Positions 583-17,115 are shown, numbered from the stretch's first letter. The stretch: DNA of 64,000 nucleotides from a virus (IMGVR_UViG_3300017585_000267:32001-96000); one strand, 5' to 3'. Notes: a model not told the origin generated them from the letters alone. Numbers and translations are program-made.

Positions 583-1287
583 TTAATCAATTTCATTGTA
601 CCATTCAATCTCAGTCCCGAACCTCTTCCTCACATGGTCGTTTATGGCGGGCCACAGGTCAGGCGGGAACTTGAAGTCAGCCCTTGTACATGCGGCGGGA
701 TGTACGGTCAGGAAGCAATTGACCCGAAAGTCGATATACCTCTCGAATGACTGCGCGTCCTTACCCATCAGTACGCAGGCGATGTCTGGATTGTTTTGGG
801 ATGTCCTGAGGAGCAGTGAGCTTATGAATGGCCTCCACAGCAGGCAGTGCGAACCAGGTCTGCCTGTCCTGCAAGTCAGGGCCGAATTAAGCATCAACAC
901 CCCCTGTCTCTCCCATGTCTCCAAACTAGGGTCAAAGATAGTCAAATTGTGCGGCCTTGAGAAATCTATTACGGACTCCCTAAGCACCCTTAATGACGGG
1001 GATAACCTCCCTCCCGGGTCTATGCCTCCCGAGGCTGGATTGTACCTTATGGGAGGCAGCCTGTTGCCAAAGGCTATCCCAGTGGCGACGCCCCTTTGCG
1101 GATAGGGGTCCTGGCCGAGGATGATGACCTTGAGCCTTTCGTATGGACACAGCCTGAAAGCCTCAAAGATGTTCCCATAGGAAGGGCAGATGTCGTTGGC
1201 CATGGGGGCGAGCGACCTGAGGATTTTGGTGGCCTCCCCGATGTCCAGGACAGCAGCCCATCCCCCGAAGTATTCCCTGGCCGTCAT
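583..1287 (-). CDS. ung: uracil-DNA glycosylase (family 1)
   Basis: KVIILGQDPYP, SPSL, WERQGVLMLNSALT and HPA motifs. Confidence 0.95.
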   Translation of the reverse strand: MTAREYFGGWAAVLDIGEATKILRSLAPMANDICPSYGNIFEAFRLCPYERLKVIILGQDPYPQRGVATGIAFGNRLPPIRYNPASGGIDPGGRLSPSLRVLRESVIDFSRPHNLTIFDPSLETWERQGVLMLNSALTCRTGRPGSHCLLWRPFISSLLLRTSQNNPDIACVLMGKDAQSFERYIDFRVNCFLTVHPAACTRADFKFPPDLWPAINDHVRKRFGTEIEWYNEID

Positions 1288-2072
1288 TACAGTTCCCCTA
1301 TATATTGAAGGGCGACGTTCCGCAGGGACTCGTCGGTGGTATGCAAGGTAGGCTCCTCGACGCCCCTGATGGCAAAGGGACAGTCCTCGATGATTATCTG
1401 TATGGGAATGTGCCTATAGCTGTACACAAAGGCTTCCGAGCGGACATGAGGCATCACGATTTCGGCCTCCAGGGAAGCCTCGACCAGCCCCTTGCCGCAA
1501 TAGGCCTGTATGATGTCCTTCCTTTCCAGGAAGACCGAGGGAGCTATCCGCATCACGGGCCTCACGAACTGGTAGGTGAAGTCACCATTGCCGGGCTTCC
1601 ATGCCCTGTGGAGCCTCCAGGAACAGATCATGAGGGGCTTCATGTCCCTGTCCAGGAGTATCCCGGAGCTGCCGTAGTACAGGAAGTCCTTGCCTGGAAT
1701 CGCGACCTTCACCAGCCTGTCAAGGGGGAAGCCCTCGTTGAAGAGTGTCCTGAAGATTGGGTCCGCCGTCTTGTTGGTGACCTCATACCCATTGCAATAC
1801 AAGGAGACGACAAGAGTGTCCGTCTTCCTGCCATGAAGGTCAGGGTGAAGGATGAGCAGTCTGTTGTCGGACAACGCCGTTATGGCATTCCCCATGACAA
1901 ACAGCGGAACCTCGATGTCATCCCCGTCTATCGGGACTTCAAGGAACCTTCGGAACTGGGCGTTGCCGTCAACTATGTCGACAGGATTGGCCACTACGCC
2001 GGGATGCCTCCCATAGATGCTGCCATCTGTCCTCGCGAAGGCGTCCTTTATAACTACAGCGGTGTTCATCAT
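1287..2072 (-). CDS. conserved crAss-like hypothetical protein, last gene of the Ubl/E2/JAB/E1 cluster
   Basis: 261-aa ORF overlapping the E1 stop and abutting the ung start. Confidence 0.75.
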   Translation of the reverse strand: MMNTAVVIKDAFARTDGSIYGRHPGVVANPVDIVDGNAQFRRFLEVPIDGDDIEVPLFVMGNAITALSDNRLLILHPDLHGRKTDTLVVSLYCNGYEVTNKTADPIFRTLFNEGFPLDRLVKVAIPGKDFLYYGSSGILLDRDMKPLMICSWRLHRAWKPGNGDFTYQFVRPVMRIAPSVFLERKDIIQAYCGKGLVEASLEAEIVMPHVRSEAFVYSYRHIPIQIIIEDCPFAIRGVEEPTLHTTDESLRNVALQYIGEL

Positions 2073-3343
2073 GCGGTCGTCTTGAATATCATGTTGTGCG
2101 CGTCATACTCCGTGAAGAACGGGAAGTCATAGGGAATGGCCGGGGCGAGCTGGTTGGCAATGAAGTTGGTGAAGAGGTTGGTGATCACCGAGCCTATCAT
2201 GCAGGCCAGGTAGGTGGTCTGCTTCAGGGAGCACACGGTCTCGTCGGCCTCACCGTCTGAGAACAGGTAGTCCCTGTCATACCTCTCCATGCTGTAGTCG
2301 TCGTCACCGGCAATTGCGAACACCTGCAAGGTATCGATGCTCAGCCTTCCGTCTATATACAGGCACTTACGCCTTTCGTCAGGTGTCTTTCCCCGAAGGT
2401 GGTCCCTCCACTTGGCGAAGAACAGCTTCCTTGCGGACATGTTGTCGAAGCCGCAGATCATGATGTCGCTGGCCTCGTCAGTCTCCTGGAACTTTCGGTC
2501 TATCCCAAAGGCGTTGGTCATGTTGGTGTACTTCTTTATCATCTGCACCATGGCCGTCACCTTGGTCTTCCCCACGTCGTCCCTGCTGAACAGTTGCCCG
2601 GACATGTTGGAGGCTTCCACAATGTCGTCATCGTACAGGAACATGCCAGCGGGGGTCATCCTGGCAATCTGGAACACGGCGTTCGAGCCTATGCCCCCTA
2701 TGCCCGCCACTATGACCACGGACTTTCGGATGCTGTCATACCATTCGGCGCCTGAGAACCTCGACGTGGAGTCATCCAGGAGAAGGGTCGGGGAATTCGG
2801 GACTATCATGCCGGTGGAGTCGTAGGGTTCGCCCCTAGGCTGCTCGGCCCTCGACTCCTCCACGTGCTCGACCACCACGCTCAGTGGCGGCGTTACTGGG
2901 GAATCCTCTCCAAGATGCCTGTCATAGTCATCCCTTGGGGAATTCTCCACAATCCTGGTGACCCCCTCGGGAATCGGCGGTTCCTCTTCCGTCTCTCGGC
3001 CTTCCGTCTCAGCGAGGAGCTGGTCAACGCGTCTGACGATATCGTCCTCCAGGGCTTCGTCAGTCTCATGGGATTCCTCGGCAATGTTCTCCTGTTCCTC
3101 AGGGGGAACCATGGCCTGAGATTCATCGTTATCCACTGCCTGCTCAATCGCGACATATGTGGTATTTGGTCTATCCAGGGCCTCCCTTATGGCGTTCAGG
3201 TCAGTCGTTATCCTGAAAGGATATTCAGGTTCGTCCTGACGACGTTCCCCCTCGGGTTCGGCTGGGGTGAAGTCCATGGGATCCAAACCAGCCGAGGCGA
3301 GTATTTCATTCAGTTCTGTGTTGTCCATGTTCAATAGATCCAT
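2069..3343 (-). CDS. ThiF/E1-like adenylyltransferase with long acidic N-terminal extension
   Basis: SRF...VAGIGGIGS, YDDDIVEASNMSGQLF, DVGKTKV, CGFDNMSAR, YIDGR motifs; candidate catalytic Cys in ETVCSLKQT; start could be 3328. Confidence 0.9.
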   Translation of the reverse strand: MDLLNMDNTELNEILASAGLDPMDFTPAEPEGERRQDEPEYPFRITTDLNAIREALDRPNTTYVAIEQAVDNDESQAMVPPEEQENIAEESHETDEALEDDIVRRVDQLLAETEGRETEEEPPIPEGVTRIVENSPRDDYDRHLGEDSPVTPPLSVVVEHVEESRAEQPRGEPYDSTGMIVPNSPTLLLDDSTSRFSGAEWYDSIRKSVVIVAGIGGIGSNAVFQIARMTPAGMFLYDDDIVEASNMSGQLFSRDDVGKTKVTAMVQMIKKYTNMTNAFGIDRKFQETDEASDIMICGFDNMSARKLFFAKWRDHLRGKTPDERRKCLYIDGRLSIDTLQVFAIAGDDDYSMERYDRDYLFSDGEADETVCSLKQTTYLACMIGSVITNLFTNFIANQLAPAIPYDFPFFTEYDAHNMIFKTTA

Positions 3344-4506
3344 CTTTCAAGTTCATTGATGTACGCGGTGAGGTACGGGTTGTCATGGAGCGGATCCACG
3401 AAGGTCTTGAGCTCCTCCTGCATGGCCATGGCCTTCACCGACCAATAGGAGTCGTCGTCAAGCATCGGGTACATGTCACGGAAGGAATCGTCCTTGCCAT
3501 ACATGAGGCTGTACTCGACGGAGTAGTCCCTCCAGCTTGTGAAGGCATCCATGTCCACGCCCCCGAACTGCTTGTCATAGACGGGGACCATGTATTTGTC
3601 GACCCACTCCTTGAGGTTCGACTTGCCGCCGTGCATGATGAGGGAACAGGTGAGCATCCTGAGCACGAGCTCCCGTATGGACTCGTCCCCCACCATGTAG
3701 CTGGACCGCAAGTTAGCCACGTCGTTCTGGACGACGCCCTCAAGCTCCCTCTCGGAGAACAGTCCGGGCTCAGCCTTTTGGGGCTGCCAGGCATCGGAGA
3801 TTCCGGGAGACAACGTGACGGCAGAGGCCTTCTTCCTTTTCTCGATTTCCTCGAACCTCCTGTCCATGTCGTCGAAGGGATTGGCCACCGCAGGCTTCTC
3901 GATGTCGAGCATGAAGTACTCGACCTTGCTGCACACGTCTTCCTTCCTGACTTCCTTGCGGTCGTCGCCCGACTTGACTTCTCCCTCACCAAAGAACTGG
4001 TAGGTGCTCTCAAGGCAGGTCACGGTGATTTCCCTCTTGATCCTGACGTTCCTCGTTATGGCCGCGACGTAGTTTCCCGCATTGTCGACTATCAGGGAGA
4101 CGAAGTTGTTGGTGTCGTTGCCTTCAACTTGCAGCGTGTTGATGTCCTGGCCGCTGAAGAACGCACCGAGCCTGTGATGGGAATGTATCAGCCCGATCTC
4201 ACAGTCGAACAGTTCCATGTTTTGGGCCATGTATGCGGCCACGTCCTCGTTCATGTGGTATTCGGTCCATCCCGAAGTCCCGAGGTCCATGGGATAGAAG
4301 TCCTCGCACCTGATTACGAGATCGCCTCCCTCGAAAGAGCCCGTGTGGTGATAGAACAGCACCCCGGACCACTCGGTGCTGGGGAACTTCCTCTGCAAGT
4401 ACCTTATCTTGGATTCCACCGGCTCGGGAATCACCATCCTATACGTGGAGGACATTTTGACTGGCGCAGGGGAGTTCCCCGCCTGTAGTTGCTTGGTTTC
4501 TTTCAT
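3331..4506 (-). CDS. JAB/MPN+ (JAMM) metallopeptidase
   Basis: EWSG...IHSHHRLGAFFSGQD fits E...HxH-x7-S-x2-D; start placed at MKETKQ. Confidence 0.9.
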   Translation of the reverse strand: MKETKQLQAGNSPAPVKMSSTYRMVIPEPVESKIRYLQRKFPSTEWSGVLFYHHTGSFEGGDLVIRCEDFYPMDLGTSGWTEYHMNEDVAAYMAQNMELFDCEIGLIHSHHRLGAFFSGQDINTLQVEGNDTNNFVSLIVDNAGNYVAAITRNVRIKREITVTCLESTYQFFGEGEVKSGDDRKEVRKEDVCSKVEYFMLDIEKPAVANPFDDMDRRFEEIEKRKKASAVTLSPGISDAWQPQKAEPGLFSERELEGVVQNDVANLRSSYMVGDESIRELVLRMLTCSLIMHGGKSNLKEWVDKYMVPVYDKQFGGVDMDAFTSWRDYSVEYSLMYGKDDSFRDMYPMLDDDSYWSVKAMAMQEELKTFVDPLHDNPYLTAYINELERWIY

Positions 4507-5641
4507 TTTTGAATCTATAGTTAACCGTACGAAGTATCCTGTTGAGCAGGGGCATGGCGAACAGATGGTGCAGCAGCACGGTTGGAGCCTCCCTGCTCGA
4601 CCCGTCGTCATAGATGGAGAGGTTCACGTCCCGCCCCTTGAAAGTAAGCACATAGGCACCCTCATATTCACTGGGGATGCAGGTAGAGAAGCCCCGTGAA
4701 TAGAACCTCCTGTCCCGCACGATGGCCTTCACCAGTATCCTCAGATTGAAGCAATACCTGGCTGCGGTCTTACAGCCATCCACGAGACGATTGTTCACAT
4801 AATCTATGAAGCAATTCGAGATGTCCATCATGAAGTCATAGTACTGCATCCCTACGGAGAACGAGTTGTTGCAATAGTTGAACTTGAGATGCCCGTTGGT
4901 AAGGTAGTACCTGATGAAGTCCTGAAGCGCAGCCTTCCCGAACTTTTCGTTGAAGTGCCCTATCAGGGAATTCGAGAACAGGGAGTCGTCATACTCGTTT
5001 TCTATGAGGTATCCCTTGTTGCCGATCTCCTCGAGCCTCCTGTAGGGGACCCCTGTAAGGGACTCTACTGTCACGTACATGGAGAGCTCCTGGCAGAACA
5101 GCATCCACTCCGTCTCGTCGAACTCATTCTTGAGGGAGTTGATGGTCCCGACTATGGGACCCCTCCCGAGGCACGGGCTGTCGAAACGTGAGAAGTCCTG
5201 CTTGTTGATTCCCCTGAGGTGGCTATGGGAGTAGTCGCTGAGGAACTGCGTCATGGAATACCTGGCCCTGTTGAGGTAGAAGCCGTGGCTGCTGGGAGGG
5301 ATCTTCCCGTCAAGGCCCACCCTGACCAGCGCATAGAGGTCGTCGATGACAACGGATCTGTCGTTCTCGTTGGTCACGGTGACATGCGGCCAGTAGACAT
5401 AGATGGAGCAGTACAGCCTGGCGGCGCCTTCTATCACCTTCCCGATCCTATGGTCCGAGATGTCAATGGTAGCGTCGGGAAGCTGTCCCGCATCCCATGC
5501 ACAGCCTATATAGCGTTCCATCCGGGAGCTTTGCAGGTCGACGAACTGTTCCCCGAAGAAGTCCTGGAATACCCTGTATACCGCAGCTACCTTGAAGAAA
5601 ACCCTGTCATGGAATTGTTCTTTTGTCATTAGCATAGGCAA
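4439..5641 (-). CDS. putative prokaryotic E2-like (ubiquitin-conjugating fold) protein
   Basis: YSHSHL...FDSPCLGRGPI resembles the E2 HPN...CL active-site spacing; lies between the Ubl and JAB genes. Confidence 0.55.
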   Translation of the reverse strand: MPMLMTKEQFHDRVFFKVAAVYRVFQDFFGEQFVDLQSSRMERYIGCAWDAGQLPDATIDISDHRIGKVIEGAARLYCSIYVYWPHVTVTNENDRSVVIDDLYALVRVGLDGKIPPSSHGFYLNRARYSMTQFLSDYSHSHLRGINKQDFSRFDSPCLGRGPIVGTINSLKNEFDETEWMLFCQELSMYVTVESLTGVPYRRLEEIGNKGYLIENEYDDSLFSNSLIGHFNEKFGKAALQDFIRYYLTNGHLKFNYCNNSFSVGMQYYDFMMDISNCFIDYVNNRLVDGCKTAARYCFNLRILVKAIVRDRRFYSRGFSTCIPSEYEGAYVLTFKGRDVNLSIYDDGSSREAPTVLLHHLFAMPLLNRILRTVNYRFKNERNQATTGGELPCASQNVLHV

Positions 5642-5653
5642 TGGACTTTTGGT

Positions 5654-5696
5654 AAAATAAAATAAAGGGAGCGAATGGTCATCCCACCCGCTCCCC
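5654..5696 (-). terminator. intrinsic terminator between the Ubl and E2-like genes
   Basis: GGGAGCG...CGCTCCC stem followed by TTTATTTTATTTT on the minus strand. Confidence 0.7.
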
Positions 5697-5722
5697 TGGC
5701 ATTGAGTAAAACAGGACAGCCC

Positions 5723-6394
5723 CTACAGGTTGGCCTCGATTATGTCATCAATCTCCTTTGAAGAGAACGGCGCATCCGCAAGGTTCTGGTTGTCCTTGAC
5801 GCTCGCGAGTTTCCCTACCATCTCACCGAGCTTGGCGAGATCCTGGACATTGAGCAGGTCGGCTTCCACCGCAAGCCTCACTACGTTGAAGAGGTTGTCA
5901 CGAAGCTCCTCGGACTCCTTGGACTTGGGTTCCTCCTCGTTGTCTATGTCACAGTCCGTGCCCTCATCTTCGTCATCGTCATCGACATAGCCGTTGTCAC
6001 AGAGGAAGGTCTCGAGGGAATCCGTGGGCACCTGGGTGAAGTTCCGCCCATAGGCCTCCTGGATTCTGTCCTGAAGGCCCTGTTCCTTGATGATGGGATA
6101 GATCTCCGTGAACCTGTCCATGGCTCCCGAAGCGATGTTCTTGTGGGTGTTGGTGAGGAGGAAGACCAGGTTGTTCGTGGTTTGTCCCTTGTAGGGGACG
6201 TTGGCGGGCAGCGGAGAGGCGTCGTCATTGAGGGTGGTCTTGGTTATGCCCTCGGTAAAGGACATCCCGGTATAGTCGATGCCGTTCTCCCTGAAAGCCG
6301 CCTTGAGCTCCCCAAGGGTTGTTGCATTGGTAGTGATTTTGTACCTTTTTTGGTCTTTGGTACTGGCGACCATGATTGTGCGATTTGTTTCCAT
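5723..6394 (-). CDS. ubiquitin-like (beta-grasp) N-terminal domain fused to helical/acidic C-terminal region
   Basis: N-terminal beta-beta-alpha pattern (RTIMV..KRYKITTNATTLGELKAAF), ending LVFLL..KNIASG at residue 90; heads the E2/JAB/E1 cluster. Confidence 0.6.
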   Translation of the reverse strand: METNRTIMVASTKDQKRYKITTNATTLGELKAAFRENGIDYTGMSFTEGITKTTLNDDASPLPANVPYKGQTTNNLVFLLTNTHKNIASGAMDRFTEIYPIIKEQGLQDRIQEAYGRNFTQVPTDSLETFLCDNGYVDDDDEDEGTDCDIDNEEEPKSKESEELRDNLFNVVRLAVEADLLNVQDLAKLGEMVGKLASVKDNQNLADAPFSSKEIDDIIEANL

Positions 6395-6411: not shown

Positions 6412-7488
6412 TTATTTGAACAATGTCTTTAGTCTTTTGAATTCCTGCTTGTCTTCAAGCACCAGGAAGTAATCCGAGAAATCCTTGACCTTGAGGCGGT
6501 CCCTGTCCTTGAAGAACCCGGTGTTAGGAAGTCTTTCAAGTAGCTCCGGGGTCACCTTCACCTCCTCCAGGCCAAAGTCAGGTATGACATAGGGAAGCCC
6601 CGTCTTCTCCGAGAGCCTCACTGCGTCCTCCTTGCCATACTTGTCCCTGTCAAAGGAGATGTAGACCTTCCGATACCTTCTCTTGAGTTCCTTCAGGGCG
6701 GTGTCGCTTATGCCGTAGCCCTCTCCTTGGGGGGCCACGGCGGGTATCCCAAGCTGTGACCATACGCACAGTGCGTCCTTGAGGGAGGAGCAGATCACCA
6801 TCCGCTCCCCGTACTCAGGGATTCTTGTCCAAAGGGAAATCACGGAGCTGTCCATGCTGTTGCACCACTTGAAGCCATCCTTGTTGAACGGCTGGTAGAT
6901 TTTCAGCGACAGCCTCCGCTCCTTCCTCTCGACGAACACGTATGCATACTTGTCCGCCTTGAACACCATCCTTCGGCCCTTGTCCTCAGGACTCTCCTTC
7001 TTGGTGATGATCTTATGTGAGATGGGATACACCTCACACTGCTTCAGGAGTTCTGGGTTCACCCCGTAGCTCCTCCAGTAGTCGTAGTCGTATTCCTGCC
7101 ACGGACGTACCCTCACCTCAAGCTTCGTGAGCCTGTCCCTTTCCTGCCTTGTGAAGGTCTTCACCCTCTTGGCCTTGAGCGTGACCTTGGCATCCGACAG
7201 CAGCTGTTCCTGTATCCTGGCCAAGGCCTGGGGGAACGTACAGTGCCAATACTGGCAAAGCAGTTCCATCAGGCCACCATTTTCTGCGGTGGCATAGTCT
7301 ATGTACCTGACATGGCCGTTCCTGGTGACATAAAGTCCGAAGGAGGGCTTGCTGTCCTTCCTTAGGGGAGAGTTTATGCAACAGGGAAGGACGTGGATGT
7401 CAAAGCAGCATGCCAGCACCTCGGCCTCGGAATAGTTGCCGAACAACTCTCCCATGCTGACGTTGGGACCTGTCTCACCTACTACCAT
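6412..7488 (-). CDS. DNA primase (Zn-finger plus TOPRIM)
   Basis: SPLRKDSKPSF Zn-binding region, ICSSLKD, SFDRDKYG TOPRIM and KDFSD motifs. Confidence 0.85.
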   Translation of the reverse strand: MVVGETGPNVSMGELFGNYSEAEVLACCFDIHVLPCCINSPLRKDSKPSFGLYVTRNGHVRYIDYATAENGGLMELLCQYWHCTFPQALARIQEQLLSDAKVTLKAKRVKTFTRQERDRLTKLEVRVRPWQEYDYDYWRSYGVNPELLKQCEVYPISHKIITKKESPEDKGRRMVFKADKYAYVFVERKERRLSLKIYQPFNKDGFKWCNSMDSSVISLWTRIPEYGERMVICSSLKDALCVWSQLGIPAVAPQGEGYGISDTALKELKRRYRKVYISFDRDKYGKEDAVRLSEKTGLPYVIPDFGLEEVKVTPELLERLPNTGFFKDRDRLKVKDFSDYFLVLEDKQEFKRLKTLFK

Positions 7489-7514: not shown

Positions 7515-8510
7515 CTATTCCCAAGGCATCTTGGGGGCGTCGTCGGCTGGAAGGTCGTCAAGGACGACCCCAGGATTGCCAGATTGGGGCGTGTCACCGT
7601 AGGAGTAGGGCTGTTCGAGGTTCGTGGCCTCCACGGAGTACTCCTGGAGAGGGCACACCTTGTAGGTGAACTTCTGTGAGAACGAGCTCTCGGGATTCCG
7701 ATAGAGGAAGATGAGCCTGTCCTCGGCCCTCTTGAGCACCTTGTCGTTGACATAGCCGAACATGAGCTGCGGATCCGTGGATATCACCTGGAACTGACCG
7801 CTCTCGGTCGACTTCACACCATAGGTGAGGTAAATCTTGTTGTTGGGCTGAAGCGCGATGGCCTCCCTGAGCTCGGAGAAGTCGCCCTTGAAGTAGTCCT
7901 TGACGTGCTCAAGCTGGAGGGTATATATGTCAAGATCCTCCCCGTCCCTGAGAAGCCACTCGTTTTTCTCATACGTGAAGGCATCACGTATGCCGAGGAA
8001 GGTATGCAGGAACGCCACCAACTGGGCCTCACCTTCCCAGGCGACCCTGTACTTGGCGTCGATCTTCTGGAGGTGAACCATGTTGTCCTTGCCTGTATAG
8101 GTAAGCCTCTTGCCCGCCTTGGCGTCCTCGGCGCTGGCGTTGGCCGAATTGCCGTACCTGTCTATCACGGTGAGAAGCTTGACTTCCTTGCCTTCGGAGT
8201 TCGTGAAGCTCCTTGCCGCCGCCGTGTTCCTCAGGAAGAAGGACACCTTGTTGATGACATCTATTCCATCATTGAGCTCGGGGACCGTCTTCACGATGAA
8301 GTCAATGCGGACGGTCTCCACGCCATCCTGTTCGCCGGTGTACTGAGGTTCGGCGACCTCCCTTCCATAGAGCTTCCCGAGCTCCTCCTTGGAGGGATTC
8401 ACGGCAAGGATTTGGGAAGCCCCTATGCCTACGTACCTTTTGAAGTCCCCAAACGATTCCGAGGACTGGTGGGTCTGGCCAATTGCCAGGAAACTGTAAC
8501 TGCTGTTCAT
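7515..8510 (-). CDS. putative single-stranded DNA-binding protein
   Basis: crAss replication-block position; YVG..AVNP N-terminus; acidic tail ending DDLPADDAPKMPWE. Confidence 0.55.
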   Translation of the reverse strand: MNSSYSFLAIGQTHQSSESFGDFKRYVGIGASQILAVNPSKEELGKLYGREVAEPQYTGEQDGVETVRIDFIVKTVPELNDGIDVINKVSFFLRNTAAARSFTNSEGKEVKLLTVIDRYGNSANASAEDAKAGKRLTYTGKDNMVHLQKIDAKYRVAWEGEAQLVAFLHTFLGIRDAFTYEKNEWLLRDGEDLDIYTLQLEHVKDYFKGDFSELREAIALQPNNKIYLTYGVKSTESGQFQVISTDPQLMFGYVNDKVLKRAEDRLIFLYRNPESSFSQKFTYKVCPLQEYSVEATNLEQPYSYGDTPQSGNPGVVLDDLPADDAPKMPWE

Positions 8511-8535
8511 TTTACCTTTGCTTTTATGTTTGACA

Positions 8536-9111
8536 TTAATTGAATGGGTCGAATTCAGGAACCGACGGTCCCTCGGGAACCGCTTCCGGCTCGGGTTCCT
8601 CAGCCACGGGGGCTTCTTCCAAGGCCTCAGGGAGGTCATCGGGAACTGCCTCAGGCTCGGACTCCTTAACTACTGGAGCCTCCTCAGGAGTCTCTGAGGC
8701 ATCGTCAGGAATTATGTTCGGCACAGTCTCCTCAAAAGTCGGAGTTACTTCCTTAGGAGTAGTGGCGGCAGAGTCCTCACAATGGTTGTACACCACATAT
8801 ACATTTCTTCCGGCATCGTAGTGCACGTTGGGGTTGGGCTCCCAGGTGGTCACCTTTACGGGCCTGCCTTCCTTGTCGAACTTGCCGGCCACCTCATTGA
8901 CCTCACGATGGCAGAGCTGGCTTGCCGCAAGGCCATACTTGGCCATCAAGCCAGCATTTTGGCTGTCTATGATCTCTTGGATGGTACGGTACTCCTCAGT
9001 AAGCTTCTGGATCTTGCTTACTATCCTTTTCTTCCTCTCTACGTCAGGCTGTACGACCTGCGCAATCCTTTTCACTGCGGCCCAGTCGCGGGTCGAAAGA
9101 ATTTTCTCCAT
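8536..9111 (-). CDS. hypothetical protein with Pro/Glu-rich duplicated tail
   Basis: Start MEKILST; EEAPVVKESEPEAVP / EEAPVAEEPEPEAVP repeat; ends FDPFN. Confidence 0.75.
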   Translation of the reverse strand: MEKILSTRDWAAVKRIAQVVQPDVERKKRIVSKIQKLTEEYRTIQEIIDSQNAGLMAKYGLAASQLCHREVNEVAGKFDKEGRPVKVTTWEPNPNVHYDAGRNVYVVYNHCEDSAATTPKEVTPTFEETVPNIIPDDASETPEEAPVVKESEPEAVPDDLPEALEEAPVAEEPEPEAVPEGPSVPEFDPFN

Positions 9112-9143
9112 GTTGCTTTGTGTTTTTGGGTTTTTGTTAAACT

Positions 9144-9974
9144 TTAAGAATTTTGGGTTTTCGTCATATCCAGGAATATCTGCGACATGTCCACCTTGAG
9201 GACGTTGTCCTCGTCCGAGGAGGCCACCATGAACCTCTTTCCCCGAAGGTGCAGGCACCTGGCCTCCCTAAGGGTGTTGTCGCCCCCCTCAAAGGAGATG
9301 TAGGTCTTCTTGCCCTCCCTGTAGATGTAGCCTATGGCGTCGGCCTCGCCGCAGATGATGGGGCCCATCTTCCCTGCGAGGTCCAGGGTCATCTCGCTCT
9401 GCTCCTGGCTGTCCTTCGTGATCTGCTTGTCCTTCACGTGGCACACAAGAATCAAGGTCTCGCAAAGCGGCTTGAACATGTTGATGATTTCCTTGATGGC
9501 AAGCCTGGTGTACAGGTAGCCCGAGCCATTGGGAAGCGTCCTGACGTCCGCATTGGGGTCAAGTATCGGCCTTCCGTCCTTGTCCTTGGCCACCATCCCC
9601 ATCTTGTCCTTCAAGTAGCCCCAGCCAGCTCCCATGGAAGTCTTCCTGTACTTGCTGGCCGCCACCGCGAGGGACATCTCCTCGAGCCTCGAGGCATTGT
9701 CTATGGTGATGTACCTGTACGGCAGCTTTCCGCCGTTCTCCCTTATCTTGTCCTCGATGGCGGACCTGATGTTGTATATGTCGGCCGCTCCCTTGGCCTG
9801 TATGACCATCGCGTCGAGGGCCCTGTAGCCATCCTCGAGGTCTATGATGAGGTTGGAGTCCAGGGAGGCCACTATGCTGCTCTTCCCAGTCTTCGGCTTC
9901 CCGAAGAGCACCAGGAGCCTCGGGTTGTAACTGATTGCCTTCCTACGTTCCGTAGGCAAAATGATGTTGCTCAT
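9144..9974 (-). CDS. AAA_24/Sak4-like P-loop ATPase
   Basis: Walker A GKPKTGKS, IIDLEDG and ITIDN motifs. Confidence 0.85.
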   Translation of the reverse strand: MSNIILPTERRKAISYNPRLLVLFGKPKTGKSSIVASLDSNLIIDLEDGYRALDAMVIQAKGAADIYNIRSAIEDKIRENGGKLPYRYITIDNASRLEEMSLAVAASKYRKTSMGAGWGYLKDKMGMVAKDKDGRPILDPNADVRTLPNGSGYLYTRLAIKEIINMFKPLCETLILVCHVKDKQITKDSQEQSEMTLDLAGKMGPIICGEADAIGYIYREGKKTYISFEGGDNTLREARCLHLRGKRFMVASSDEDNVLKVDMSQIFLDMTKTQNS

Positions 9975-14573: not shown

Positions 14574-14645
14574 TAGCTCCAGCAGGAATCGAACCTGCAC
14601 CTGGGGTTTAGGAAACCCCCGTTCTGTCCGTTGAACTATGGAGCC
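14574..14645 (-). tRNA. tRNA-Arg(CCT)
   Basis: Canonical cloverleaf GGCTCCATAGTTCAACGGACAGAACGGGGGTTTCCTAAACCCCAGGTGCAGGTTCGATTCCTGCTGGAGCTA. Confidence 0.92.
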
Positions 14646-14680: not shown

Positions 14681-14752
14681 CAATGGGCAGCGGAATCGAA
14701 CCACTGTCTCAAGGTTGAAGACCTTGCGTACTGACCGCTATACCAGCCCACC
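14681..14752 (-). tRNA. atypical tRNA (nominal anticodon TTC, C at position 33)
   Basis: Acceptor GGTGGGC/GCCCATT, D arm, T arm AGTGG-TTCGATT-CCGCT; anticodon arm CAAGG-TCTTCAA-CCTTG. Confidence 0.65.
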
Positions 14753-17046: not shown

Positions 17047-17115
17047 AAGGGACGGCAGGGGTCGAACCTGCGTCTCCCGAAAACCGGGGCTCTCTCCCAA
17101 TTGAGCTACGTCCCT
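17047..17115 (-). ncRNA. tRNA-like RNA with truncated anticodon arm
   Basis: Perfect acceptor AGGGACG/CGTCCCT, D arm GCTC..GAGC, T arm GCAGG-TTCGACC-CCTGC; anticodon arm only CCCGGTTTTCGGG. Confidence 0.7.

Follow-up and report, generated by a model that had tools for sequence, protein, structure and literature searches.

The complete genome of a crAss-like gut phage carries a cassette of five genes that we consider likely to encode a ubiquitin-like (Ubl) protein conjugation pathway. The window analysed, 64,000 nucleotides long, comprises bases 32001-96000 of the 105,238-base virus record IMGVR_UViG_3300017585_000267, which CheckV rates as complete; its GC content is ~54%, and the closest proteins to its own are those of crAss001, cr85_1, DAC15 and other Steigviridae-type crAss-like phages. 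The cassette consists of genes for a predicted Ubl pro-protein, an E2-like protein, a JAB (JAMM) metallopeptidase, an E1-like ThiF-family protein and a 261-amino-acid protein, and it lies between the genes for primase and uracil-DNA glycosylase (UDG), inside a run of minus-strand replication genes. It is real and conserved, and probably undescribed. We propose that JAB, E1 and E2-like proteins act in sequence on the Ubl tag and that the set is expressed together with the replication genes. The cassette had been read this way in an original prediction made from the sequence alone, and that reading held up: a beta-grasp is predicted for the tag, UBC-like folds dominate the structural matches of the E2-like protein, albeit weakly, its candidate catalytic cysteine is invariant, and the genes co-occur across phages. 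All five open reading frames (ORFs) were found where they had been placed; they and the features within them are on the minus strand, and positions below refer to the window.

The first cassette gene (5723-6394) encodes a 223-residue protein, equivalent to crAss001 gp79, with a beta-grasp domain, a flexible tail and a helical C-terminal part. The domain of ~90 residues originally described as beta-grasp-like was examined in an AlphaFold2 model built from a 16-sequence alignment, with a mean pLDDT (predicted local distance difference test) of 77.6, and the fold check came out positive. Within a ubiquitin-like domain of residues 1-85 (6140-6394), residues 5-82 are predicted to run strand-strand-helix-strand...strand, with pLDDT mostly above 90. 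The best Foldseek matches in the PDB were ubiquitin, SUMO, ISG15, NEDD8, UBX and DIX (E ~1e-3, probability 1.0), and MoaD structures were also among the beta-grasp matches; a profile of the Ubl alignment found nothing meaningful among PDB sequences. The domain runs into the tail K85-N-I-A-S-G-A91 (6122-6142), which we predict to contain the processing and activation site. Residues 86-92 are predicted to be flexible (pLDDT <50), and Ser89 and Gly90 (6125-6130) are invariant in all 16 aligned sequences; at this position gp55 of Flavobacterium phage Fpv3 has V-K-S-G-G. The remainder of the protein, residues 92-223 (5723-6121), is modelled as three helices, an acidic disordered linker and three helices. 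R94, K103, T120 and L127 are invariant in the same 16 sequences, and this part alone had no match in Pfam.

In three related loci the pro-Ubl gene is split exactly after the Ser-Gly codons (L033:3000-4301, L043:3542-4471 and L060:3225-4438). The first ORF of each encodes a 91-residue Ubl that ends in SGIC or SGKF, i.e. SG plus two residues, and the C-terminal part resumes in a further ORF that has a start codon of its own. The insert is a NUMOD4/HNH_3/NUMOD1 homing-endonuclease gene in L033, a similar ORF in L060 and a decayed remnant in L043. We looked for a group I intron at the split and detected none, and therefore read it as a homing-endonuclease insertion rather than an intron. Since the gene is naturally divided at this point, both halves can be made as separate proteins, with Ser-Gly as the boundary. 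Such a division fits a pro-protein that is cut at Ser-Gly, but does not prove that cleavage occurs. A search for short stand-alone Ubls returned three proteins, all on very short contigs and probably truncated, and was uninformative.

The candidate processing enzyme is the product of the third gene (3331-4506; crAss001 gp77, annotated 'metalloprotease'), a JAB/MPN+ metallopeptidase of the JAMM type. The ORF is open to 4611, and its real start is probably Met36 (nucleotide 4506), where the homologues begin. The intact JAMM motif claimed for it, E...HSH-x7-S-x2-D, is indeed present (4144-4374): E80 (4372-4374) is followed by H143-S-H145, seven residues, S153, two residues and D156 (4144-4185), so that all ligands stand at the correct spacing, and they are conserved in the aligned relatives. 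The motif aligns with that of P. furiosus JAMM1, an archaeal Ubl-processing enzyme. The Pfam Prok-JAB model matched the protein at 2.8e-5 with 24.4 bits, 0.6 bit under its cut-off of 25 bits, and the conserved helical C-terminal half (approximately residues 250-426), searched in isolation, had no Pfam match.

The fourth gene (2069-3343; 424 residues; crAss001 gp76) encodes an E1-like protein with a single adenylation domain, residues 193-424. Its ThiF/E1 fold, noticed in the original prediction, is well supported: Pfam ThiF matches residues 198-307 at 1.5e-16 (60.7 bits, cut-off 28.1), hhalign aligns the protein to E. coli ThiF with a probability of 96% and to MoeB with 94%, and profile matches in the PDB are led by MccB and PaaA and include UBA5, TcdA, ThiF, Cap2 and BubCD. 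The GxGGxG motif is GIGGIG at residues 214-219 and invariant among 18 relatives; D238, K261 and D300, aligned with the ATP/Mg ligands of ThiF and MoeB, and R195, also aligned with its ThiF/MoeB equivalent, are invariant too. Cys371 (2231-2233), in the predicted crossover loop, shares a MAFFT column with the crossover-loop cysteines C184 of E. coli ThiF and C187 of MoeB. This is the cysteine of the sequence ETVCSLKQT, and as a candidate catalytic residue it is conserved in homologues, being invariant in the 18 sequences; it had been called a lone cysteine, but it is not the only one, as C297, C327 and C381 also exist. The ~190 N-terminal residues (2774-3343) are acidic, poorly conserved and variable in length, are absent from the 228-residue E1 of Fpv3, and had no Pfam match in isolation. 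By these comparisons, the enzyme is closest in kind to UBA5, ThiF and MoeB.

A related 227-residue ThiF protein (profile match 6e-20) occurs in jumbo phages, namely Xanthomonas phage PhiXhv-16 (L093, 81928-92407) and Erwinia phage Ep032. It keeps the crossover-loop cysteine and is without the NLxRQ arginine discussed below. The gene adjoins those for hypothetical proteins of 892 and 70 residues, near topoisomerase genes, and none of the remaining cassette genes had a detectable counterpart.

The second gene (4439-5641; 400 residues; crAss001 gp78; starting at TTG 5641 or ATG 5629) encodes the proposed E2, with a UBC/RWD-like N-terminal half (residues 1 to ~205). An AlphaFold2 model had a pLDDT of 79; over residues 10-190 it was mostly 88-98, except for a region around residues 41-80 (54-81). 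The modelled order is a helix, a beta-meander (strands 78-90, 96-108 and 122-129), a long loop and then helices from residue 162. Foldseek gave no usable match of this model in the PDB, and the alignment profile gave nothing meaningful against PDB sequences. In a fold search independent of Foldseek, ~29 of the 50 best rows belonged to the UBC superfamily, with weak scores. They comprised fifteen E2 enzymes, five RWD domains, the FANCL central domain and UEV-type domains (Tsg101, VPS37A, FTS and BRISC subunits), and they included the Cap2 E2 domain and BubB, the two bacterial E2s whose structures are known. Because the individual scores are low, the fold signal lies in the make-up of the match list. 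The UBC fold that had been expected of this protein thus emerged as its dominant structural match, but a weak one.

The motifs expected of the E2-like protein, HSH...PCLG with a cysteine near nucleotide 5171, are present as H139-S-H141 (5219-5227) and P156-C157-L-G, the Cys codon being 5171-5173. They delimit a candidate active-site loop (5171-5227): in the model Cys157 lies in the loop 135-161, after the beta-meander and before helix 162-172. The modelled order of elements (sheet, His-containing motif, Cys, helices) is that of E2. A profile search of 1.84 billion representatives was run at E<=1e-3, and invariance was scored in 76 of the best, mutually diverse representatives of clusters at 50% identity. 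The family comprises 2,838 such clusters, and N91, E92, H139, S140, H141, C157, G159, G161, P162, E185, E193 and S194 are invariant in 76 of 76 representatives, so the conservation of the candidate cysteine in homologues is borne out. The C-terminal half (residues 225-380, a putative separate domain) had no Pfam match when isolated, and the N-terminal half gave only sub-threshold leads in the ESM Atlas, including a viral cluster that was 14% Prok-E2_D. When 185,579 prokaryote genomes were scanned with the E2-like alignment, which detects fairly close relatives only, there were six hits; two came from fragments of 1-4 kb, and four from contigs of 29-111 kb that resemble phage genomes binned by mistake.

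The co-occurrence of the genes, with a fixed order, extends from crAss001-like phages to Flavobacterium phages. A scan of IMG/VR with an alignment query yielded 80 related loci (an alignment was needed, as a single-protein query found nothing there). The order primase, Ubl, E2-like, JAB, E1, 261-residue protein is kept in 74 of them, nearly always with UDG next, and the remaining 6 are cut by a contig end. The same set is present in crAss001 as gp79-gp75 and also in a bajarodcaudo virus. Flavobacterium phage Fpv3 has the five genes together in the same order, with UDG on the other side; the profile E-values are 9e-18, 1e-21, 3e-44, 3e-58 and 3e-4, in a target set of 13 proteins, which overstates their significance.

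Mobile elements have also entered the enzyme genes of the cassette. Three relatives have group I introns there (Rfam RF00028, 66-70 bits against a cut-off of 50). Two of these introns interrupt the JAB gene at its HSH codons, in L071 (intron 5343-5555) and L051 (4669-4928): the frame stops after ...L-I-H and is taken up again within HSH or directly behind it (MMSHNNM... in L071, MSTFFSGTD... in L051). In L003 (intron 3288-3519) it is the HSH codons of the E2-like gene that are interrupted, with a break at ...Y-M-H and resumption in an ORF that starts with MSH. As a rule, introns of this kind are found in codons that are highly conserved and critical for function. Because they sit at HSH in both genes, their positions would mark the JAMM zinc ligands and the E2-like HSH as the sites under the strongest constraint. 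Both targets encode (I/M)-H-S-H, so a single intron lineage may be able to home into either gene.

Further homing elements lie in and around the cassette, and the module seems to be a hotspot for them. Free-standing HNH genes stand between its genes, after the Ubl gene in L050 (3543-4082) and at the same position in L058, and in the gap between primase and Ubl genes in L033 (2427-2981). In L033 there is also a group I intron (9505-9748, 84.8 bits) just upstream of a 164-residue UDG ORF; L032, L036, L037, L052, L057 and L072 have the displaced 164-residue UDG ORF only, suggesting the same interruption.

The genes of the cassette had been described as mostly overlapping, which is true of E2-like/JAB, JAB/E1 and E1/261-residue genes but not of the Ubl and E2-like genes, which a hairpin separates. 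The overlap of E2-like and JAB genes is ~68 nucleotides (4439-4506) if JAB starts at Met36, and ~60 nucleotides in related loci; JAB and E1 genes share 13 nucleotides; the E1 stop and the start of the 261-residue gene overlap as ATGA, and the stop of the latter and the UDG start as TAATG. Both frames look conserved in the E2-like/JAB overlap, where the C-terminus of the E2-like protein forms a V-x-Y/H-[LIVF] motif. A programmed frameshift fusing these two genes was considered and rejected, since a +1 shift would be needed and both frames are conserved through the overlap. The hairpin (5655-5697), which sets the Ubl gene apart from those of the enzymes, has 14 pairs and a T-run and resembles a strong intrinsic terminator. 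Of 55 distinct intergenic sequences from related loci, 53 have a hairpin with T-run at the same place, though the stem sequences differ between lineages, and in the two exceptions a homing-endonuclease gene is inserted there. That such a hairpin is conserved just downstream of the Ubl gene suggests that more tag than enzyme is produced.

The fifth gene (1287-2072) encodes an orphan protein of 261 residues and, in related loci, always follows the E1 gene. P56, Y132 and G137 are the only invariant residues in its family alignment, and a weak profile match links it to Fpv3 gp51, which has the same position (2.9e-4 against the 13-protein set). It had no match in Pfam (tried with all alignment members), NCBIfam, PHROGs, PADLOC, the PDB or the ESM Atlas, where its own model was poor (pLDDT 0.30) and gave no usable match, and profile-profile comparison revealed no relation of its family to the E2-like and Ubl families. 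That it might be an E3 or adaptor is a guess.

From the domain identities, conserved residues and gene linkage observed here, we propose the following pathway. The JAMM peptidase would cut the 223-residue pro-Ubl after Gly90 of the K-N-I-A-S-G|A tail, releasing a beta-grasp of 90 residues that ends in Gly, and the helical part as a protein of its own. There are precedents for this step, as the Bub JAB (BubCD) cuts the Ubl-E2 pre-protein BubAB after a conserved Gly (PMC11601596) and lambda TAPI is predicted to be cut likewise by the TAPK JAB (PMC1779556). The minimal ThiF/UBA5-type E1 would then adenylate the Gly and take the Ubl onto the crossover-loop Cys371, from which it would move to Cys157 in the UBC-like domain of the 400-residue protein. 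This enzyme would join the Ubl to target lysines, perhaps helped by its own C-terminal half, by the 261-residue protein or by both, and JAB may also reverse the mark. Expression would coincide with that of the middle (replication) genes: in crAss001 the replication module is transcribed as a middle class, 10-30 min post infection (PMC8375218), and gp75-79 would, from their position, belong to that class. In its fullest form, the proposal is that this is the first complete Ubl conjugation cascade of bacterial viruses, made up of a pro-Ubl, a JAB, a minimal E1 that uses Cys and an E2 of a new family, and conserved both in Flavobacterium phages and in a major crAss-like family of the human gut; that, turned on together with replication, it covalently tags host or phage proteins (e.g. 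of the replisome or of defence) and so steers the infection; and that the E2-like C-terminal half or the 261-residue protein chooses the targets. We lean only slightly towards this wider claim.

Several findings weigh against a conjugation pathway. For the tag, Gly90 is internal to the pro-protein, and cleavage would therefore be required for a free C-terminal Gly. For the E1, Gly249 (2597-2599) is invariant throughout the clade at the position where E1 enzymes keep the ATP-binding Arg of NLxRQ, as seen in alignment with MccB, ThiF and MoeB; the residue is Gly in Fpv3 and Asn in the Xanthomonas jumbo phage ThiF. This loss had gone unnoticed when the E1 fold was first recognised. The invariant Arg228 beside the P-loop might, we infer, make up for it. 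Nor does the E1 have the CxxC pairs that bind Zn in ThiF and MoeB. As for the E2-like protein, it matched nothing in Pfam, NCBIfam, PHROGs or PADLOC, and Pfam on 13 alignment members returned scattered chance hits only; its fold scores are low; it has HSH in place of the HPN of E2, 16 rather than ~8 residues before the Cys; and hhalign of its profile to one Prok-E2_D protein, the single hit obtained from 401 genomes, was not significant (probability 0.5%).

These weaknesses of the E2 assignment also count in favour of the most probable alternative, which we still consider improbable. Here the E1 would adenylate the beta-grasp C-terminus for a different chemistry, as MccB and PaaA do with peptides, without a relay of the E2 type, and the 400-residue protein would be some other Cys/His enzyme, such as a hydrolase, transferase or cyclase, that resembles UBC only superficially. 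MccB and PaaA are the top PDB profile matches of the E1, and besides the low fold scores and the missing sequence family match, the 400-residue protein has more invariant polar residues (N91, E92, H139, H141, E185 and E193) than a typical E2. However, the MccB and PaaA matches cover the shared nucleotide-binding part only, the E1 keeps its crossover-loop Cys in the thioester position, and a JAB partner is typical of Ubl systems. The fold list, moreover, is dominated by E2, UEV and RWD domains, with two bacterial E2s included.

The cassette could instead serve counter-defence only, with JAB stripping host Ubl marks, such as those on Bil-tagged virion proteins or Cap2-primed cGAS, while the other three phage proteins, Ubl, E1 and E2-like, would be decoys or competitors and would not tag targets of their own. 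Hosts use Ubl conjugation to defend themselves against phages, and JAB peptidases undo it (PMC11601596; PMC10097602); in PADLOC, the Cap2 and BilD models have weak matches to the E1 (BilD at 1.3e-7, over residues 213-307, the Rossmann part, only). We think this a little less probable still. The other three proteins (JAB, E2-like and Ubl) matched no PADLOC model, and the cassette is in the replication module, not near virion genes. That the catalytic residues of all three enzymes and the tag's Ser-Gly stay invariant across thousands of clusters speaks for a working pathway and against decoys.

A sulfur carrier system, in which a ThiS/MoaD/CysO-type beta-grasp is adenylated and thiocarboxylated by the ThiF-like protein, processed by JAB (as by Mec+) and passes sulfur to a cofactor, tRNA or DNA, ranks lower again and seems distinctly unlikely. 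The E1's best named matches are ThiF models (NCBIfam, 3.3e-17), MoaD is represented among the beta-grasp matches, and JAB, Ubl and E1 sets do act in sulfur assimilation (PMC1779556); but the scores of all ThiF models are far below their equivalog cut-offs, and a sulfur relay has no use for an E2-like protein whose Cys is invariant. The original prediction had seen no sulfur-transfer genes nearby, and this extends to the whole genome: ThiG, MoaE, rhodanese and PP-loop thiolase were not found in the complete 105 kb by the method that recovered ThiF. We regard it as very unlikely that the set is a non-catalytic scaffold or assembly factor whose E1 was inactivated by loss of the ATP-binding Arg, since, despite Gly249 throughout the clade, GxGGxG, D238, K261, D300, R195 and C371 stay invariant, Arg228 could compensate and strong conservation reaches distant phages.

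Among known systems, the cassette would work like Bil, Cap2/Cap3 and Bub, but it is a member of none. Like Bil (BilA Ubl, BilB E2, BilC JAB and BilD E1), which uses Ubl conjugation in phage-host conflict (PMC11601596), it has these four components as separate genes. However, it is encoded by the phage rather than the host, has a fifth gene and makes its Ubl as a pro-protein; its E1, one ThiF-like domain of ~230 residues with a crossover-loop Cys, is not of the BilD type, and in PADLOC BilA, BilB and BilC models gave no match, against the Rossmann part only for BilD. With type II CBASS (cyclic oligonucleotide-based antiphage signalling system), in which Cap2 is an E2-E1 fusion and Cap3 a JAB, it shares a non-canonical ATG7/UBA5-like E1 and a JAB partner, and both the E1 and E2 parts of Cap2 are among its matches. 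E2 and E1 are nevertheless separate genes here, the tag is a beta-grasp instead of a CD-NTase C-terminus, and no CD-NTase (SMODS) was found in the 105-kb phage genome. In type I Bub (BubAB, BubCD and BubE), the Ubl is likewise the N-terminal part of a pre-protein, freed by JAB after a conserved Gly, and BubB and BubCD are among the structural and profile matches of the cassette. In contrast, Bub uses an E1 Tyr and an E2 Ser, forming oxyesters, where both cassette candidates are Cys; the cassette Ubl is fused to a helical domain instead of an E2, JAB and E1 are separate genes, and DUF6527/BubE was not found in the phage genome.

Other parallels are partial. In the TAPI and TAPK (JAB-NlpC/P60) proteins of lambda and T1, too, a phage beta-grasp has a conserved Gly and is joined by a linker to another domain, and the JAB encoded nearby is predicted to cleave the protein (PMC1779556). 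That set, however, is without E1 and E2, lies among the tail genes and is not believed to act in conjugation, whereas the cassette has an E1 and an E2-like protein and belongs to the replication module. The PRTRC cassette of plasmids and conjugative elements similarly places a ThiF-family gene in a mobile element beside replication and partition genes. The match of the E1 to the NCBIfam PRTRC_ThiF model (8.3e-11, 41.7 bits) is, however, far below the cut-off of 144.75 bits, and the other four cassette proteins matched no NCBIfam model, PRTRC components included where the library has any. In the UBA5-UFC1-UFM1 and archaeal SAMP-UbaA-JAMM1 pathways the E1 is likewise minimal, a single domain whose Cys lies in the region of the crossover loop, and a JAMM peptidase matures the tag; UFC1 is an atypical E2 that, like the E2-like protein, has no HPN, and the best PDB matches of the cassette proteins include UBA5 and JAMM1. 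Unlike the cassette, these pathways are cellular, their E1 keeps the NLxRQ Arg, and the archaeal system has no E2.

In GenBank the E1 is named 'thiamine biosynthesis protein' or 'E1 enzyme family protein', the JAB 'metalloprotease' and the other three proteins 'hypothetical'. The supplement of Yutin et al., 2021 lists 'ThiF family' and 'MPN, metalloprotease' between three 'uncharacterized' genes, and a 2026 preprint mentions in passing a gut-phage family that resembles UBA5. A search that left most subscription-journal papers outside it found no paper linking crAss-like phages with a Ubl system or describing this set as one. To our knowledge, bacterial Ubl tagging has so far been described as host equipment, namely sulfur carriers and CBASS, Bil and Bub defence. 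If our proposal is correct, the phage side of the conflict uses the same Ubl chemistry, as many eukaryotic viruses do, and five conserved genes of crAss001-type phages, which are among the commonest viruses of the human gut, would gain a function. The E2-like family is large, yet without a Pfam model, and an E1 clade without an Arg thought to be general for E1 enzymes is of mechanistic interest. Both crAss001 and its host Bacteroides intestinalis can be cultured, so the Ubl idea is directly testable.

The genes around the cassette, all on the minus strand where a strand was assigned, are those of a replication module. The cassette is flanked by a DnaG-type primase gene with a Toprim domain (6412-7488; PHROG 12622 at 2.9e-36) and by the UDG gene (583-1287; NCBIfam UNG at 4.9e-31, Pfam UDG at 7e-11). 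Judged by similarity of gene order to crAss001, the same run contains a DnaB-like helicase and an ATPase placed like the Sak4-like gene of that phage. Between the primase and this ATPase are two conserved genes, 7515-8639, whose 374-residue product had no match in Pfam, NCBIfam or PHROG, and 8536-9258, whose 240-residue product has a repetitive Pro/Glu-rich tail. Downstream of the replication module, Rfam identified three tRNA genes on the minus strand, at 14574-14645, 14681-14752 and 17047-17115.

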